This document shows, one piece after another, positions 1 to 9,000 of a DNA stretch of 25,764 nucleotides. Position 1 is the stretch's first letter; every line of letters starts with the position of its first letter. The position numbers are program-made. The stretch comes from Gloeobacterales cyanobacterium (GTDB lineage Bacteria > Cyanobacteriota > Cyanobacteriia > Gloeobacterales > PMM-0068): positions 1-25,764 of the forward strand of contig JBBRSB010000042.1 of the NCBI GenBank assembly GCA_038245785.1. Reading direction: 5' to 3'.

Positions 1-3000
1 AGATTCGCTTTCCGTGGGCTCAACCATCATCGTGCCTGCTACCGGCCAAGAAACCGTGGGGGCATGAAAGCCATAATCCATGAGGCGTTTGGCAATATCA
101 TCGACTTCAATCCCGGCACTGATTTTGAGCTGGCGCAAATCTAGGATGCATTCATGGGCAACTAAACCCTGTTTGCCTTTGTAGAGAATCGGATAGTGAG
201 GCTCCAGGCGATGGGCTATGTAATTGGCATTGAGAATAGCTACTTTGGTCGCTTCGGTCAATCCTTCTGCACCCATCAGCGCGATGTACGTCCAGCAGAT
301 GGGCAGAAGACTGGAACTACCCCAGGGAGCAGCCGAAACAGCCCCAATGCCCTGGATTCCCCCCGTTTTAACTACAGGATGTTTTGGCAAAAAGGGAACT
401 AAATGTGGTGCGACCCCAATCGGCCCGATGCCAGGACCACCGCCACCGTGGGGAAGACTGAAGGTTTTGTGCAAATTTAAATGGCAAACGTCTGCTCCCA
501 TATCTCCTGGACGGCATAGGCCAACCTGGGCATTCATGTTGGCTCCATCCATATAGACTTGTCCACCATGGGCATGAATAATTTCGCAGAGGTCTGTGAT
601 CGATTCCTCAAACACACCATGAGTTGAAGGATAGGTCACCATCATGGCAGCCAGTTCCTTACTATGCGCTTCGGCTTTTGCCTTCAGGTCAGCCACATCG
701 ATATTGCCTTGGGCATCACAAGCAACGGGGACTACCCGGAATCCAGCCATGACCGCACTGGCAGGGTTGGTCCCATGGGCAGAGGTGGGAATCAAACAAA
801 TATTGCGATGACTTTCTTGGCGATGTTGGTGATAAGCCCGAATCACGAGCAGGCCCGTATATTCTCCTTGTGAACCAGCATTCGGTTGCAAAGACATACC
901 TGCAAATCCTGTGATTTCAGCGAGTTGCTCTTCTAGTTGCTGGAAGAGAATTTGGTATCCCCTGGCTTGTTCTATGGGGGCGAAGGGGTGAATCTTGCCA
1001 AATTCTGGCCAGGTGACAGGCATCATCTCTGTGGTCGCACTCAGCTTCATCGTGCAAGAGCCCAGCGGAATCATCGAAGTAGTTAATGACAAATCCTTGG
1101 TCTGCAGGCGATACATGTACCGGAGCAATTCGGTTTCCGAGTGATAGCTGTTGAAAACGGGATGGGTGAGGTAGGGACTGGTACGCGCAAACTTTTGCTT
1201 TATAACTTCAGAAGCTATGAGAGATTCTAGAGTGAAATCTACAGGCTGACCGCCATTGAAAACGGTTAAAAGGTCTTCTAAGTCCTTCTCTGAGGTGGTT
1301 TCATCCAGACTGATGCCCAGAGTTTTTTCATCGAATATCCGCAGATTGATACGCTGCTCGGCAGCGGCTTCCAAGATCTTCTTGGCCTTGTCTGCAGAAA
1401 GATTGAGCTGCAAAGTATCAAAAAATGGCTCTGAGCTAACTTCATATCCTAGTCGTTTCAGACCTGCTGCTAAGGTCGCTGTTGCCCGATGGACTCGTTG
1501 AGCAATTTTTTTAAGCCCCTGAGGACCGTGATATACCGCATACATGCTGGCCATCATTGCCAACAAAGCCGCAGTAGTACAGATGTTGCTGGTCGCCTGA
1601 TCTCGGCGGATGTGCTGCTCCCGTGTCTGTAGCGCTAAACGCAGGGCAGGCTTGCCATGCACATCATGAGATACACCAACGATACGCCCTGGAATATGTC
1701 GTTTGTACGATTCTCTGGTCGCAAAATAGGCTGCGTGAGGACCGCCATAACCTAGGGGCGCTCCAAAACGTTGGCTATTCCCTACGGCGATATCTGCTCC
1801 AAACTCGCCTGGCGGCTTAAGCAGCGTCAGACTCAACAGATCTGCCGCAACTGTTACTAAGGCTCCTGCCTGATGAGCATGGTCTACAAAAGCTTGGTAA
1901 TCATAAATGGCCCCATTGGTTCCTGGATATTGCAGCAGAGCTCCGAAAATCGGTTGGTCAAAATCAAAGGTTTCATGATTGCCCACCAAGACTTCAATCC
2001 CGAGGGCCGTAGCACGGGTCGTTACGACCTCAATCGTCTGGGGATGACAGGCTTCGGAGATGAAAAACGTCTTTTTTTCCTGTCCCGCTATGGTCTTGGC
2101 CTGCAGACCATAGCTCATGGTCATCGCTTCGGCAGCAGCGGTGGCTTCATCGAGTAGGGAAGCATTGGCAATTTCTAAACCCGTCAGATCCATAACCATC
2201 GTTTGGAAATTGAGGAGGGCCTCCAGTCTGCCTTGAGCGATTTCCGCTTGGTAGGGGGTGTACTGGGTATACCAGCTCGGATTTTCTAGGATATTCCGCT
2301 GAATGACGGTGGGGGTGATGCAGTCGGAGTAACCCATGCCGATGAAGGAGCGAAAAATTTGATTTTTGGAAGCTAAGGACTTCAGCTCGCTGAGCACCTC
2401 GTATTCGCTACGGTTTTTTCCCAGTTTGAGAGGCCGTTCTAGGCGGATGTGCGCGGGGACCGTTTTCTGGATCAGGTCCTCTAGAGAAGCGAAGCCCATG
2501 CTTGAAAGCATGTCCTGAATGGCGGCAGGACTGGGACCAATATGCCGCCGAGCGAAAGAATCAGTGCTAGCGAGTGTATCTTCCGGGTACTTCAGAACAA
2601 GCTTTAGCCCGTTTCTATAGAGATATTTGTTTGACGGTTTTTTTGTGAATACGGAGGCATTTTTTATGGTTTCTGGGGTCACAGGGCTTCCTTATGTAAG
2701 GCAATGTAAAGTTTACCGTATTAAAGTACTGTTATTACTAAGTACAACAATGTGCTTAAGAATACTTTCAGCAACCCGTCAAATGTGCTTAATCGCCTGT
2801 TGATATAAATGATTTATATTCCAAGTATTAGCCACAGAAGAATCTATAAAGCATCTGGAAGGTCTTTTTATTACAATGCAGCAACCTGAAGTTTTGCACC
2901 CCACCGTTCCAGGATAGTTTGCAGGTCTTGCATCTTTATCGGTTTGCTTACGTAGTCATCCATGCCTATCTGCAAGCACGCTTCACGGTCTCCTTGCATC

Positions 3001-6000: not shown

Positions 6001-9000
6001 GCCGATAAAATGGCGGTCAAGCCACAGGTTGGAATCCAGCCCCACCAGTAACAAACGCCTGTGAGGTTTGCTAGCACTGGACTATAGGGACGAAAAGCTT
6101 CAGCGCAGGTGGCGGCAATTCCGCCGACCCGATTGGGATACATCAAAATTAGTTCGGTCCAGCCTGGTGCTGCCGCCCAACTTAACAGAAGTCCAAGGAT
6201 GAGCAGGGGAATTGCTGCACTCCCTTGCCCAGGGATTGCTCCTTGACCGATAAATAGAGCAGATAAGAGGAAAAGACTCTGGTTACTACCGCCCATGGCA
6301 AGGGCTGTTGTTCCGATCCATCCGATTGTTCGTGGATGGGCAAGAGAAGCTGGCTTAGGGATAGACGTACTAGTCATAATTACTGAGTATTCCCTGGCGT
6401 CACAAGCGATCATGAGAAAGTCAGTAAATCCTCATCCAGAATTTATAAATGATTAAATGATTAACTTTAGACAAAACCCCGGAGAGCGACAAAGCCCAAT
6501 GACCAAAGAACGTTTAGACCAGCTACTCGTGGACCTAGAGCTTGTTAGTTCGTGTCATGTAGCTCAGGGCATGATCCGAGCAGGTAGAGTGCGCGTCAAT
6601 GGTCAATTGGTGGATAAGCCCACGGAGACTTTTGATCCTCTAAAAGTGCAGATTTATATGGACCCTCTTCCTCTTTACGTCTCACGCGGGGGAGAAAAAT
6701 TGATCGGTGCTTTAACAGATTTTCCGATTGTGACTCAAGGCCGAGTCTGTCTGGATGGAGGCATCTCTACCGGTGGATTTACGGATTGTATGCTTCAGGC
6801 TGGCGCGGCAAAAGTCTACGGCATCGATGTTGGCTATGGGCAGGTTGCCTGGAAACTGCAAACCGATCCCCGCGTGGTTTTGAAGGAACGGACCAATCTA
6901 CGTCATCTCACCGCAGCCGAACTTTATGGCCCAGAAGATCCTAGACCTGATTTAGCGACGGTGGATATATCGTTTATCTCTCTGGCGAAGGTGCTACCAG
7001 CGCTCTATGAACTGTTGGTGGCCCCCAGAGAATTACTGCTTTTGGTCAAACCACAGTTCGAGGCTGCACGGACTGAAGTGGGGAAAAATGGCGTGGTCCG
7101 CTCTCCTGAAGTGCACCAGTTCGTCTTAGAGAAGGTGTGGCAAGCCTCCCAGCCCTTCGGCTGGAAATTTCAAGGGGTGACTTATTCCCCCATTCGAGGT
7201 CCGCAGGGAAACATCGAATACTGGCTCTGGCTTTCCTGCTCTAGCGAAGAAGTGCAAGAGCCCTCTGCAAAGTTCAAAGCAGTGGTCGAGCAAGCCCATG
7301 GCGTACTCTGAAAGCTTCTCTTCGGACAGTTGAGCTAGTGGGGATGCTACACATCCCCACTAGCTCGTGTTACTAACTAACCGCAGACTCCATAGGAGGT
7401 AAGCAGACGTTGGTACCACCTAATCCACAATATCCATTGGGATTTTTGGCCAGATATTGCTGATGGTAGTTCTCGGCGTAGTAGAACTCAGGAGCCTCGA
7501 TGATTTCCGTAGTAATGGCCTTATGCCCAGCATCACTGAGAGCCTTCTGGTAAGCATCACGGGAAGCTTCTGCCAGTTTCTTTTGGCTGTCAGAATATGT
7601 ATAAATTCCTGAGCGATATTGCGTTCCCACATCGTTGCCTTGACGCATTCCTTGGGTCGGATCGTGGCTTTCCCAAAAGATTTTCAACAGAGCTTCGTAG
7701 CTAATTACTTTTGGGTCAAAAACCACAAAAACGACTTCGTTGTGGCCCGTCATTCCTGAACATACTTCTTCATAGGTAGGATTTGGCGTGACTCCAGCGG
7801 TGTAGCCTACGGCTGTCGTATAGACTCCCTTCTGCTGCCAAAATTTACGCTCTGAGCCCCAGAAGCATCCAAAACCAAACATGGCCATTTCCATGCCTGC
7901 GGGGAAAGGAGGCTTCAAGGAATTCCCATTCACGTGGTGACGAGCAGGTACAGGCATCGGTTCTGCCCTTCCAGGCAAGGCATTTTCCGCGTTTGGCAGA
8001 GTTACTTTTTTACCGAACAATCCGAATAGTGCCATAAATTTCGTCTCTGACTTTGTTGCTATCTTTACTCTACTTAATATCGGCGAAGACGGCGAGGTCC
8101 GACCTGTCGTTTGCACGCTAAGCCATAATCACAAGGAGAGGCCAGAAAACTCATGCATTAAAACGTACACCACAAGGAGCTACGTATGGAGAAAATAGCC
8201 GTTGTAACCGGAGCTAACCGGGGAATGGGGTTCGAAGTTTCCAGGCAGCTAGCAAAAGTAGACATGCAGGTGATTCTCACCAGTCGAGACCCTGAAAAAG
8301 GTCAAAAAGCAGCGGAGCAATTGCAGCTAGAAGGCTTCGATGCTATTTACTATCCTTTAGATGTTGCTAATGCTGAAAGTATTGAGGTTTTTAGCCAATT
8401 TGTCCGTCATAAATTTGGTCGTGTGGATGTACTTATCAATAACGCTGGTTTAATGATCGACGCACCAGAAATCAGTGTCTTTGATGCCAAGGTTGACACC
8501 CTGCGCAAAACGATGGAAGCCAATGTCTACGGACCTTTCCAGTTAATCCAGGCACTGGTTCCTTTGATGAAAGAGCATCACTACGGGCGGATTGTAAATG
8601 TGTCTTCTGGCATGGGTCAATTGACCGATATGGGGGGAGGCTATCCTGGCTACCGACTTTCTAAAGTTTCCCTCAATGCCTTAACGCGAATATTCGCTAA
8701 CGAACTAGAAGGCACCAATATTCTGGTGAATACGATGTGTCCTGGTTGGGTCAAAACTGATATGGGCGGACCCGGTGCAACCCGTACCCCTGAAGAGGGC
8801 GTAGACACGATGGTCTGGCTTGCAACTTTAGCGGATGGTGGTCCCACGGGTGGATTTTTCCGTGACCGCCAGCCCATTCCTTGGTGACTCCTTGGAGGAA
8901 GTCTGAAATGGTGACGAAAATAGATTCCTATGTGCAGGTTGCCCAATTGGCGGAGGTGCAGACAGCAGGCTGTTTAGTTGTCCCTATTGCTGGACATACG

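Follow-up and report, generated by a model that had tools for sequence, protein, structure and literature searches.

In the window analysed here (the whole stretch of 25,764 nucleotides), we identified a gene for an 1180-amino acid protein that is probably a membrane sensor, in which a transporter-derived cassette would bind a small solute and switch a hybrid histidine kinase via a HAMP domain. The gene is a single intact open reading frame (Table 1). Its product combines, in this order, a 12-helix core of the APC/LeuT fold, two further transmembrane helices (TM13 and TM14), HAMP, HisKA, HATPase_c, and two receiver domains, with all catalytic motifs present. A Pfam scan of the protein detected seven families at E<=0.01 and reproduced the domain coordinates of the initial annotation, confirming the fusion as real. 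The NCBIfam kinase models cover the protein from residue 583 on only, in agreement with the Swiss-Prot matches reported initially, which were confined to the kinase part. The module is found in a single copy in the 5.0-Mb genome. The interpretation of the protein as a transporter turned receptor is partly supported: the fusion, the family, its various outputs, and the conservation pattern stand, whereas its relatedness to known transporters, its rank as a "third class", and the definition of the recurring unit had to be corrected.

Table 1. Features of the sensor gene and its surroundings (positions in the window; residues of the 1180-aa protein)
Feature	Position	Strand	Evidence
Whole gene, APC-fold sensor cassette fused to hybrid histidine kinase	2871..6413	-	open frame, Pfam
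APC/LeuT-fold core, residues 30-469, 12 TM helices	5007..6326	-	Pfam, AF2, Foldseek
Helical hairpin TM13 (479-503) and TM14 (about 510-541)	4791..4979	-	AF2, hydropathy, invariant positions
HAMP, residues 554-606	4596..4754	-	Pfam, AF2
HisKA (DHp), residues 633-698, H-box SHEIRTP 642-648	4320..4517	-	Pfam 81.6 bits, motif
HATPase_c, residues 745-876, N/G1/F/G2 boxes	3786..4181	-	Pfam 93.9 bits, motifs
Receiver 1, residues 902-1018	3360..3710	-	Pfam Response_reg 69.2 bits on fragment, motifs
Receiver 2, residues 1053-1168	2910..3257	-	Pfam Response_reg, motifs
188-nt spacer to gcvP (gcvP 1-2682, same strand)	2683..2870	-	sequence; context only

The N-terminal part belongs to the APC permeases by its profile score (AA_permease_2 at residues 30-424, 111.5 bits against the Pfam cut-off of 27), and it also matches AA_permease (62.3 bits, cut-off 24.6). 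The AF2 models (pLDDT 80.9 and 80.1) place helix breaks at residue 45 in TM1 and at residue 236 in TM6, and in Foldseek the core matches AdiC, LAT1, y+LAT1, and BasC with target-normalised TM-scores of 0.78-0.81 at 15-20% identity (best values: AdiC 5j4n_B, E 5.7e-13; BasC 9h76_A, TM-score 0.81). Both predict a LeuT-type core of 5+5 inverted repeats with unwound TM1 and TM6, as in solved APC carriers. The 12 transmembrane helices annotated initially are correct for this core but not for the membrane part, which has 14 helices in the AF2 models and by hydropathy, TM13 and TM14 being added. Instead of the single weak match reported previously, comparison of the module with the PDB sequences yielded five distinct matches at E<=1, the best one to xCT (7ccs_B, 2.1e-7), and the module family profile yielded 14 matches.

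Positions invariant among 27 cassettes cluster in the substrate-site helices TM1, TM3, TM6, TM8, and TM10 (71 of 155 positions, versus 41 of 170 in the other helices; Fisher p 4e-5, a value that assumes independence, which the positions do not have). This pattern fits a specific ligand site. The predicted pocket segments, placed via the helix breaks and motif alignment rather than by measured distances, are GGSNQ (41-45) in TM1, CYWWGW (121-126) in TM3, and FAAPAFE (234-240) in TM6, the last of which aligns with the amino-acid-binding segment FSYSGWD of the y+LATs. The cytoplasmic-side APC motifs ETIDPxKNVPRA after TM6 and AGASRT...DGLLP in TM8 are also retained; at the level of motifs this is compatible with transport, but proves nothing.

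The nearest named transporter family is TmoP (NCBIfam NF053774; 129.5 bits, E 1.5e-37). TmoP is the TMAO permease of Methylocella silvestris, reportedly described by Zhu et al. in 2014. The protein is not itself a TmoP, because its score is far below the whole-protein cut-off of 690 bits; a true TmoP, encoded next to a Tdm-like gene, scores 889.6 bits with the same model. Identity between the two proteins is 28% in the region of residues 192-415 and 27% in that of residues 5-161, and they have in common the family-specific motifs PN(K/R)xGG, CxWxxWxP, FExAxC, and AG(A/S)SRTL...DGxLP, so the module was overstated to be barely related to any characterised transporter. They differ in the pocket segments of TM1 (GGSNQ versus GVPAL in TmoP) and TM6 (GFAAPAFE versus AWSTYGFE), and in organization, TmoP being a free 12-TM permease encoded in a catabolic cluster. 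The similarity to TmoP is no indication of TMAO as the ligand, because the TMAO demethylase Tdm is above its cut-off in only four of 40 carrier genomes. No Tdm gene was found in the window. As a weak guess, the ligand is perhaps small, polar, and organic, either a cation or a zwitterion.

The hairpin that follows the core is conserved in its helices and not in between, with invariant positions in 10 of 25 residues of TM13 and 11 of 29 of TM14 (38-40%), versus none of nine in the linking loop (27 cassettes). They include D494, G497, Y498, and D518, of which D494 lies inside TM13. In the AF2 models, helix 479-503 is followed by helix 510-568, which is TM14 continuing into AS1 of HAMP; then come the connector (569-590) and helix 591-639, where AS2 extends into the kinase helix. 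HAMP (28.6 bits on the whole protein and 33.1 bits on the fragment, cut-off 25) thus directly follows the last transmembrane helix and has the two helices and connector of HAMP-coupled membrane receptors. It lies within the conserved, output-independent block, which reaches approximately residue 625. The cytoplasmic part is a HisKA-type hybrid histidine kinase: besides the H-box, it has the ATPase motifs NLLSNAVKFT (756-765), DTGIGI (811-816), FQSFSQ (825-830), and GGTGLGL (840-846), and both receivers retain their first motif (901-907, with DD at 905-906, and 1054-1059), the acceptor Asp (in AILDMQMP, 947-954, and IFMDVQMP, 1098-1105), and the Lys (in LSKP, 1005-1008, and VSKP, 1155-1158).

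The recurring unit of the family is not the permease alone, as had been assumed, but a cassette of about 600 amino acids comprising the core, TM13/14, and HAMP (residues 26-625). Its identity is 66-80% among Verrucomicrobiota, Pseudomonadota, Actinomycetota, Planctomycetota, and the host phototroph. The family is indeed large and spans these four named phyla and the host: a search with residues 1-500 retrieved 1857 proteins at E<=0.001 among the 8000 candidates scored (proteins of 649-2065 aa), close to the 1855 previously given for E<=1e-20. Identity of 75-97% over at least 92% of the module holds for the 120 listed relatives (92-100% coverage), whose Pfam rows show histidine kinase or GGDEF+EAL outputs. 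The sources named among the 120 include Verrucomicrobia, Undibacterium, Glaciimonas, Casimicrobiaceae, Gammaproteobacteria, and Hydrocarboniphaga; many loci carry taxon labels taken from metagenome bins, which may be incorrect.

The same membrane module is linked to alternative outputs, as the initial annotation held. The C-terminal parts encoded by 76 genes from named genomes are HisKA kinases (38), HisKA_2/HWE kinases (7), GGDEF+EAL (27), and GGDEF alone (1), the other three genes being truncated where a contig ends or is broken. In relatives with identities as low as 31%, the output is of the histidine kinase, GGDEF-EAL, GGDEF-HD, or SpoIIE type, and in all complete members scanned HAMP separates the membrane part from the output. 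Mapped on a tree of 79 cassettes, the output type requires at least seven changes, compared with a minimum of two.

In 136 pairs among 17 kinase-type members, mean identity decreases along the protein from the core (74%) and TM13-14 (69%) to HAMP (58%) and DHp+CA (47%). In the same pairs dN is 0.09-0.28 for the cassette versus 0.34-0.92 for the kinase, and pS is 0.69-0.83. Because synonymous sites are saturated, the likeness of the cassettes reflects purifying selection, not recent spread. Conservation of the whole core exceeds the need of a ligand site, and may have another cause, for example a full transport cycle, a partner, or an oligomer interface. Most carrier genomes have a single copy of the cassette (one match in 38 of 40), and no convincing free-standing permease was seen among close relatives. 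All 17 aligned "permease only" database proteins extend beyond TM12 (16 reach TM13 or a later point) and then break off. Forms of about 620 amino acids that end just past HAMP are also present in the databases (e.g. P0187, with 5 member sequences); the one such case that was read as DNA proved to be a frameshift split.

Among 149 loci of the family, receiver proteins are the sole recurrent neighbours (43 loci, in 26 of which they are encoded directly downstream of the cassette gene), and no conserved metabolic or transport neighbour was found among 639 neighbour proteins. The gene was not found in the 440 other genomes of the host phylum that were searched; a genome of the same genus has only a kinase remnant without the cassette. 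The window contains no Rfam family.

The following mechanism is proposed. A small solute would bind in the customary site of the LeuT fold, lying between the unwound segments of TM1 and TM6 and lined by TM3, TM8, and TM10, and occupancy of this site would move the core among outward-facing, occluded, and inward-facing states. In a dimer, this movement would be relayed from TM12 through a short basic linker to the TM13/14 hairpin and HAMP, both the dimer and the route being suggested by the general behaviour of HAMP kinases. HAMP would then switch autophosphorylation at the H-box histidine, from which the phosphoryl group could pass to the receivers of the same protein and then to an Hpt protein encoded elsewhere; six Hpt matches were detected elsewhere in the genome, one of them within a 135-aa frame. 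We consider it a roughly even question whether the core also carries the solute across the membrane.

Instead of an organic nutrient, the cassette could sense an inorganic ion or a physical membrane state (K+, Na+, H+, NH4+, or membrane potential), the LeuT-fold core being an ion-binding or voltage/pH-responsive switch. The extreme phylum-wide conservation would suit such a universal and invariant stimulus, as would the lack of substrate-specific catabolic or uptake neighbours at the 149 loci and the global character of the outputs (c-di-GMP, phosphorelays, SpoIIE-type phosphatases). The polar residues S43, N44, Q45, and S46 at the TM1 break, the invariant D494, and the presence of the ion-carrying LeuT-fold proteins KimA, NKCC1, KCC, and NCC among the Foldseek matches point in the same direction. 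However, the top structural and sequence matches are carriers of amino acids and amines, the TM6 segment aligns with the amino-acid-binding one of the y+LATs, and TmoP, the closest family with a name, transports an organic solute, which makes an ion sensor unlikely. It is quite improbable that the protein is primarily a working transporter with cytoplasmic domains that regulate or report its flux, as in a true transceptor like CbrA, or even with signalling from the kinase to the carrier. The retained cytoplasmic-side motifs and the constraint beyond the pocket would agree with this, but no convincing free-standing form, to be expected of a protein serving mainly in uptake, was seen among close relatives, and the usually single-copy cassette has no cognate catabolic genes nearby. 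HAMP between membrane and output is, moreover, the arrangement of an input and not of a regulated carrier.

The position of gcvP suggests that in the host the protein might sense glycine from photorespiration and control this gene, which begins downstream after a spacer of 188 nt, in the same orientation. No site resembling a promoter or a terminator was found within 2550-3000, hence no terminator-like one between the two genes, and the genome encodes photosystem reaction-centre genes. Such a role is nevertheless highly improbable, since gcvP adjoins the cassette gene at none of the 148 other loci, and in the same-genus genome (G002) gcvP and the kinase remnant are on different contigs. The protein also lacks a DNA-binding output, no response regulator gene was found in the window, and cassettes of non-phototrophs share 74-80% identity with this one.

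A transporter fold also serves as a non-canonical kinase input in Ks-Amt5 of Kuenenia, an ammonium sensor made of an Amt domain fused to a histidine kinase; the Amt fold, trimeric and channel-like, has no relationship to LeuT. Ssy1 is a yeast nutrient sensor of the APC family. Both Ssy1 and Gap1 are eukaryotic, signal through the PKA or SPS pathway, and are unfused to two-component or c-di-GMP domains. CbrA is reported both to transport histidine and to signal (PMC7096432, PMC9100948), and CbrA and CrbS (MxtR), the SLC5-STAC kinases of Pseudomonas and Vibrio, likewise use an N-terminal LeuT-fold transporter domain as kinase input. Their transporter belongs to SLC5/SSS and not to APC (AA_permease), and neither SSF nor STAC is among the seven Pfam families of our protein, which thus falls outside the SLC5-STAC kinases. 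The coupler differs as well, being a soluble STAC domain in CbrA/CrbS and two extra transmembrane helices with HAMP in the cassette family, whose outputs, unlike those of CbrA/CrbS, include c-di-GMP enzymes and SpoIIE phosphatases besides kinases.

The proposed "third class" beside CbrA and the sensor Amt proteins is too neat. APC permeases already serve as sensors: in trans, the E. coli permease LysP signals lysine to CadC by a ligand-dependent conformational change (PMC5936718), and in yeast Gap1 is cited as an APC-fold amino-acid transceptor (PMC11109136). LysP and CadC are not fused but meet as two proteins within the membrane, with LysP still a working lysine permease, whereas the cassette is linked covalently to its output via TM13/14 and HAMP. 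Likewise, a fusion of a secondary carrier with a sensor kinase is already catalogued as the Sensor Kinase-MFS Fusion family (TCDB 2.A.1.34; PMC3924187), which has the MFS and not the LeuT/APC fold. No equivalent kinase-fusion entry for the APC family was found in the published papers searched, as distinct from TCDB itself. In line with the earlier claim that the family is undescribed, a full-text literature search found neither a description of APC-sensor fusions nor an experiment on any member. In our reading, the cassette is an input dedicated to ligand sensing, and the family is a large group of sensors that is conserved to an unusual degree and has apparently escaped study.

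The window kinase g04425 is encoded by one open frame, and the domain description in the initial annotation, an amino-acid permease of the APC type joined through HAMP to a hybrid histidine kinase with two receivers, is borne out, save for small points, by the single frame, the Pfam matches and the sequence motifs (see the table). In particular, the kinase has the H-box SHEIRTP at residues 642-648 and all of the N, G1, F and G2 boxes, while both receivers retain the DD, acceptor-Asp and Lys motifs, and judged by these motifs the kinase looks functional. No Hpt domain was found within the protein; six Hpt matches occur elsewhere in the host genome, one of them inside a 135-aa frame. 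The feature is real: a cassette consisting of an APC core, the helices TM13/14 and HAMP is fused to an intact hybrid kinase.

Domains and predicted helices of the g04425 protein, and other features of the window
Feature	Position	Strand	Basis or remark
Permease-kinase gene g04425	2871-6413	minus	one open frame, 1180 codons
AA_permease_2	residues 30-424		Pfam, 111.5 bits (cut-off 27)
Basic linker WRKYSDRKRQ	residues 461-470		
TM13	residues 479-503		AlphaFold
TM14	residues ~510-568		AlphaFold; unbroken into the first HAMP helix
HAMP	residues 554-606		Pfam
Connector	residues 569-590		AlphaFold
Long helix into the kinase	residues 591-639		AlphaFold
HisKA	residues 633-698		Pfam
HATPase_c	residues 745-876		Pfam
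Response_reg, first receiver	residues 902-1018		Pfam
Response_reg, second receiver	residues 1053-1168		Pfam
gcvP	1-2682	minus	GDC-P, 653 bits; runs off the window end
Kinase-gcvP spacer	2683-2870		188 nt
Rieske ORF	8881-10653	plus	590 aa
MFS transporter gene	16888-18171	minus	
ORF	20798-21115	plus	105 aa
ORF	21822-22583	minus	253 aa
Adaptive-response gene pair	23269-25295	minus	

Two AlphaFold models, of residues 1-500 (18 sequences, pLDDT 80.9) and 1-640 (27 sequences, pLDDT 80.1), give a core of 12 helices broken at residues 45 (TM1) and 236 (TM6), and such breaks in TM1 and TM6 are a hallmark of the LeuT fold. The basic linker joins this core to the two extra helices. A Foldseek comparison with the PDB matched the core to AdiC, LAT1, y+LAT1/2, SLC7A10 and BasC, with E-values down to 5.7e-13, TM-scores on the target of up to 0.81 and identities of 15-20%. 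Against PDB sequences, the module (residues 1-500) has five matches at E<=1, and a family profile has 14, with alignments that start no earlier than about residue 139; in the profile alignment FAAPAFE (234-240) stands opposite the y+LAT segment FSYSGWD, and ETIDPxKNVPRA opposite the general APC motif EEIKNPERNLPLA.

Comparison of the window protein with 78 family genes by BLAST revealed a conserved block, from about residue 26 to about residue 625, that comprises the core, TM13/14 and HAMP whatever follows it. We classified by Pfam the 76 C-terminal parts long enough for scanning. HAMP is followed by HisKA kinases in half of them (38, with or without PAS, receivers or Hpt; one is cut), by HisKA_2/HWE kinases in seven, by GGDEF plus EAL in 27 and by GGDEF alone in one; in two HAMP lies at a contig end, and one has a 69-aa stub. 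Outputs of the GGDEF-HD and SpoIIE phosphatase kinds occur in addition among more distant members. The cassette is modular: a single input serves no fewer than five kinds of output. A quick maximum-likelihood tree of 79 cassettes requires seven or more changes among the three output classes (the minimum being 2, and the mean after shuffling 28). There the window cassette, itself joined to a HisKA hybrid kinase, is grouped with a proteobacterial clade of the GGDEF-EAL type (SH-aLRT 90, not starred).

A free-standing permease was not seen among the 17 aligned 'permease only' proteins from a search of proteins of 275-875 aa. All 17 extend beyond TM12, 16 reach TM13 or further, and they end at a contig end or in a divergence such as follows a frameshift. 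At one locus of an alphaproteobacterial bin (L080:9977-13190), a 617-621-aa frame with the cassette and HAMP is overlapped in another phase by a 503-aa frame, and this is therefore a split fusion rather than a stand-alone form, the split being a frameshift, either real or due to assembly error. The databases also hold possible stand-alone forms, some of about 620 aa that stop just past HAMP (for example, P0187) and another, P0223, of 496 aa.

The family is large and widely spread. The module has 1857 matches in long proteins among the 8000 candidates scored, with identities of 75-97% among the 120 matches listed, and 598 matches in proteins of 275-875 aa, where the 120 listed are 68-80% identical and either fused or cut. 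When 1.84 billion sequences, one representative per 50%-identity protein cluster, were searched exhaustively with HMMER, 1430 representatives matched at E<=0.001, 512 of them at E<=1e-10 and 231 at E<=1e-30, including long fused members with as little as 31% identity. With two patterns, one genome from each of 185,579 species was scanned; of the 557 stretches obtained, 503 were confirmed. The best 80 of these belong chiefly to Verrucomicrobiota, Burkholderiales and other Betaproteobacteria, Hyphomicrobiales, Nevskiaceae and Methylophilaceae, with one Actinomycetota and one Planctomycetota label, and the labels may be imperfect because many of the sources are metagenome bins. In the metagenome scan, 80 loci with identities of 57-81% were found and none of the closest relatives (86-97%). 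Carrier genomes have one cassette match in 38 of 40 cases. Genome G432 has, in addition to its intact copy, a second cassette fragment (C22:74175-74864; residues 9-239, 67% identity); it has two internal stops and is therefore a pseudogene piece.

Among 17 members of the histidine-kinase type (136 pairs), mean identity falls from 74.1% in the core to 69.1% in TM13-14, 58.5% in HAMP and 46.9% in DHp plus CA. The proportion of synonymous differences in eight pairs is 0.69-0.83 and thus saturated, so that the contrast between dN of the cassette (0.09-0.28) and of the kinase part (0.34-0.92) in these pairs is a qualitative one. These figures point to selection, rather than recent spread, as the source of the likeness of the cassettes, and conservation of this degree is rare for membrane sensor domains. 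The helices TM1, 3, 6, 8 and 10 form the substrate site of LeuT-fold carriers. In 27 cassettes 71 of their 155 positions are invariant, whereas the other seven core helices have 41 invariant positions of 170 (Fisher's test with positions taken as independent, p 4e-5). Invariant positions also make up 40% of TM13 and 38% of TM14, and none of the nine in the loop joining them. Family-specific motifs are GGSNQ in TM1, GQGxIxGQGSAA after it, PNRVGG, GVCYWWGW(V/I)PTCGLTA in TM3, GFAAPAFEAAxCHVGE in TM6, GDPxWLIAAANFTYLI in TM10, LDGxGY in TM13 and LEDIFVAVA in TM14. In 20 fused relatives at 31-52% identity only 12 motif positions are invariant, and YWWGW and CHVGET are not kept. The broad group, reaching down to 31% identity, probably has several specificities; the window gene falls within the main subfamily, which is sharply defined.

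Five Photo_RC matches occur in the host genome (5.0 Mb, 98% complete), whereas of 14 control genomes only Synechococcus has any, so that a cyanobacterium is the most likely host. A Photo_RC match of the psbA/psbD type at C6:76425-77325 falls into two adjoining pieces, which cover profile positions 1-117 and 118-258, and a TAA stop is counted inside it; damage to the gene or faulty assembly may be the cause. The module was found neither in 40 relatives (two of the same genus, 11 of the order and 27 of the class; E<=1e-20) nor in 400 further genomes sampled evenly across the phylum (E<=1e-40). The gcvP, TlyA-like methyltransferase, MsrA and SDR genes are 79-84% identical in DNA in the two same-genus genomes, and the contig is native.

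In one of these two genomes, G002, the syntenic spot is occupied in the same orientation by a gene (contig C200, L179:3871-5373, minus strand) divergent from the TlyA-like gene. Its 500-aa product, 54% identical to residues 549-1050 of the window kinase, starts inside HAMP, continues with HisKA, HATPase_c and a truncated receiver, and lacks the second receiver; no trace of the 14-TM cassette was found by tblastn. The DNA of this kinase is just 66% identical, against 79-84% in the flanks. Since HAMP is a part of the conserved cassette in all members, a frame that begins within it is best read as the decayed remnant of a full fusion, a reading that we consider probable. Alternatively, the cassette may have been added to a resident kinase in the line of the host genome, and not lost in G002. 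Under either of the two histories, decay of a full fusion or gain of the cassette, the cassette gene is patchy in its phylum and mobile over evolutionary time.

Directly downstream of the kinase gene, on the same strand, lies gcvP. The spacer between them has no promoter-like or terminator-like site, and neither a glycine riboswitch or other Rfam family at gathering score nor a tRNA was found in the window. This adjacency recurs at no other locus of a set of 149 and, as far as can be told, is a local accident. Elsewhere in the window, an adaptive-response pair consists of a 504-aa fusion of Ada Zn-binding, AraC-type HTH, AlkA N-terminal and HhH-GPD glycosylase domains, and, overlapping its gene by 4 nt, the gene of a 171-aa O6-methylguanine methyltransferase. 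The Rieske ORF has its [2Fe-2S] domain in the first ~110 residues only, the remaining ~480 matching no Pfam family at E<=1e-5; likewise, the 105-aa and 253-aa ORFs match none at this threshold. Strong plus-strand AT skew (0.30 at 5001-6000 and 0.31 at 17001-18000) overlies minus-strand genes of membrane proteins, the APC core and the MFS transporter, respectively, and fits the T-rich codons of transmembrane segments.

In search of the ligand, we called ORFs around 78 loci and the window and clustered the 481 neighbor proteins all against all (L025 and L080 yielded no target ORF in this set); a second set covered 149 of 161 sources and 639 neighbor proteins. The only recurrent neighbors are receiver-domain proteins, present at 43 of the 149 loci and directly downstream on the same strand at 26; in an annotated sample, 14 of 16 contain a receiver (REC-PAS-HK-REC, REC-HD, REC-SpoIIE or REC alone). 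Thus, the outputs are signaling networks and not a dedicated operon, and the neighborhoods of these 149 loci (639 proteins) gave no clue to the ligand.

Of the named transporter families, that of the TMAO permease TmoP (NF053774; 129.5 bits, E 1.5e-37) comes closest, the next scoring 73 bits. A genuine TmoP (889.6 bits), found in a Mesorhizobium carrier of the cassette next to a gene similar to the TMAO demethylase Tdm, is 28% identical to the window cassette over 192-415 and 27% over 5-161, and the two have in common the motifs PN(K/R)xGG, CxWxxWxP, FExAxC and AG(A/S)SRTL...DGxLP. The cassette thus comes from TmoP's branch of APC carriers. That the cassette itself is a TmoP was rejected, as its score falls well short of the cut-off and the pocket segments of TM1 and TM6 differ. 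TMAO was likewise dropped as a general ligand, with Tdm above cut-off in only four of 40 carrier genomes, labeled Hyphomicrobiales, Mesorhizobium or a 'Bacterium' sister. At locus L167 (G042:C219:281641-286299) of the Mesorhizobium genome, whose own cassette gene is of the GGDEF-EAL type, TmoP adjoins a gene matching the C-terminal half of Tdm, and a full Tdm (1270.7 bits) lies just past this pair at C219:285102-287399. The aromatic motif of TM3 and the kinship with carriers of amines and amino acids allow a weak guess that the ligand might be a small polar organic cation or zwitterion, the main alternative being an inorganic ion.

The ligand would bind between the breaks of TM1 and TM6, and rocking of the core would reach a dimeric HAMP by way of TM12, the linker and the TM13/14 hairpin and so act on the kinase; phosphate would then move across both receivers to an Hpt protein whose gene lies elsewhere. 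For putative solute transport by the core, we put the chances at about even. A broader and rather doubtful proposal is that the ~600-aa cassette (APC core, TM13/14 and HAMP) could serve as a plug-in receptor of universal use, specific for a single small molecule or ion found everywhere, with a complete alternating-access cycle as its switch. On this view it stayed almost unchanged (about 74% identity, the synonymous sites being saturated) through seven or more re-wirings to kinases, c-di-GMP enzymes and phosphatases, in no fewer than four phyla.

Sensors derived from transporters form a small class that is much discussed, usually with CbrA and the ammonium sensor kinase as examples. By mode of action, the systems closest to g04425 include the SLC5-STAC kinases CbrA and CrbS, the Amt-fused ammonium sensor kinase and yeast Ssy1. 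Others are the Sensor Kinase-MFS fusions catalogued in TCDB (PMC3924187), the LysP-CadC system, with its APC permease signaling in trans (PMC5936718), and yeast Gap1 (cited in PMC11109136). Full-text literature searches gave no APC permease fused to a HAMP kinase or cyclase, and TCDB, MiST, InterPro or subscription journals may list the architecture.

The present family is distinct from the usual transporter-derived sensors in being large, modular and highly conserved, and is therefore a good system for two questions: how the conformational cycle of a LeuT fold drives a HAMP switch, and which shared cue controls c-di-GMP and phosphorelays in freshwater and soil bacteria that are abundant but little studied. 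Since the cassette-HAMP unit already works on several outputs in nature, it is an obvious candidate for the construction of biosensors. If the plug-in receptor proposal is true, the cassette would rank with MASE and Cache as a new membrane sensor domain of bacteria and would be the first covalent APC-type transceptor, and its ligand would be a lifestyle cue for many freshwater and soil bacteria.
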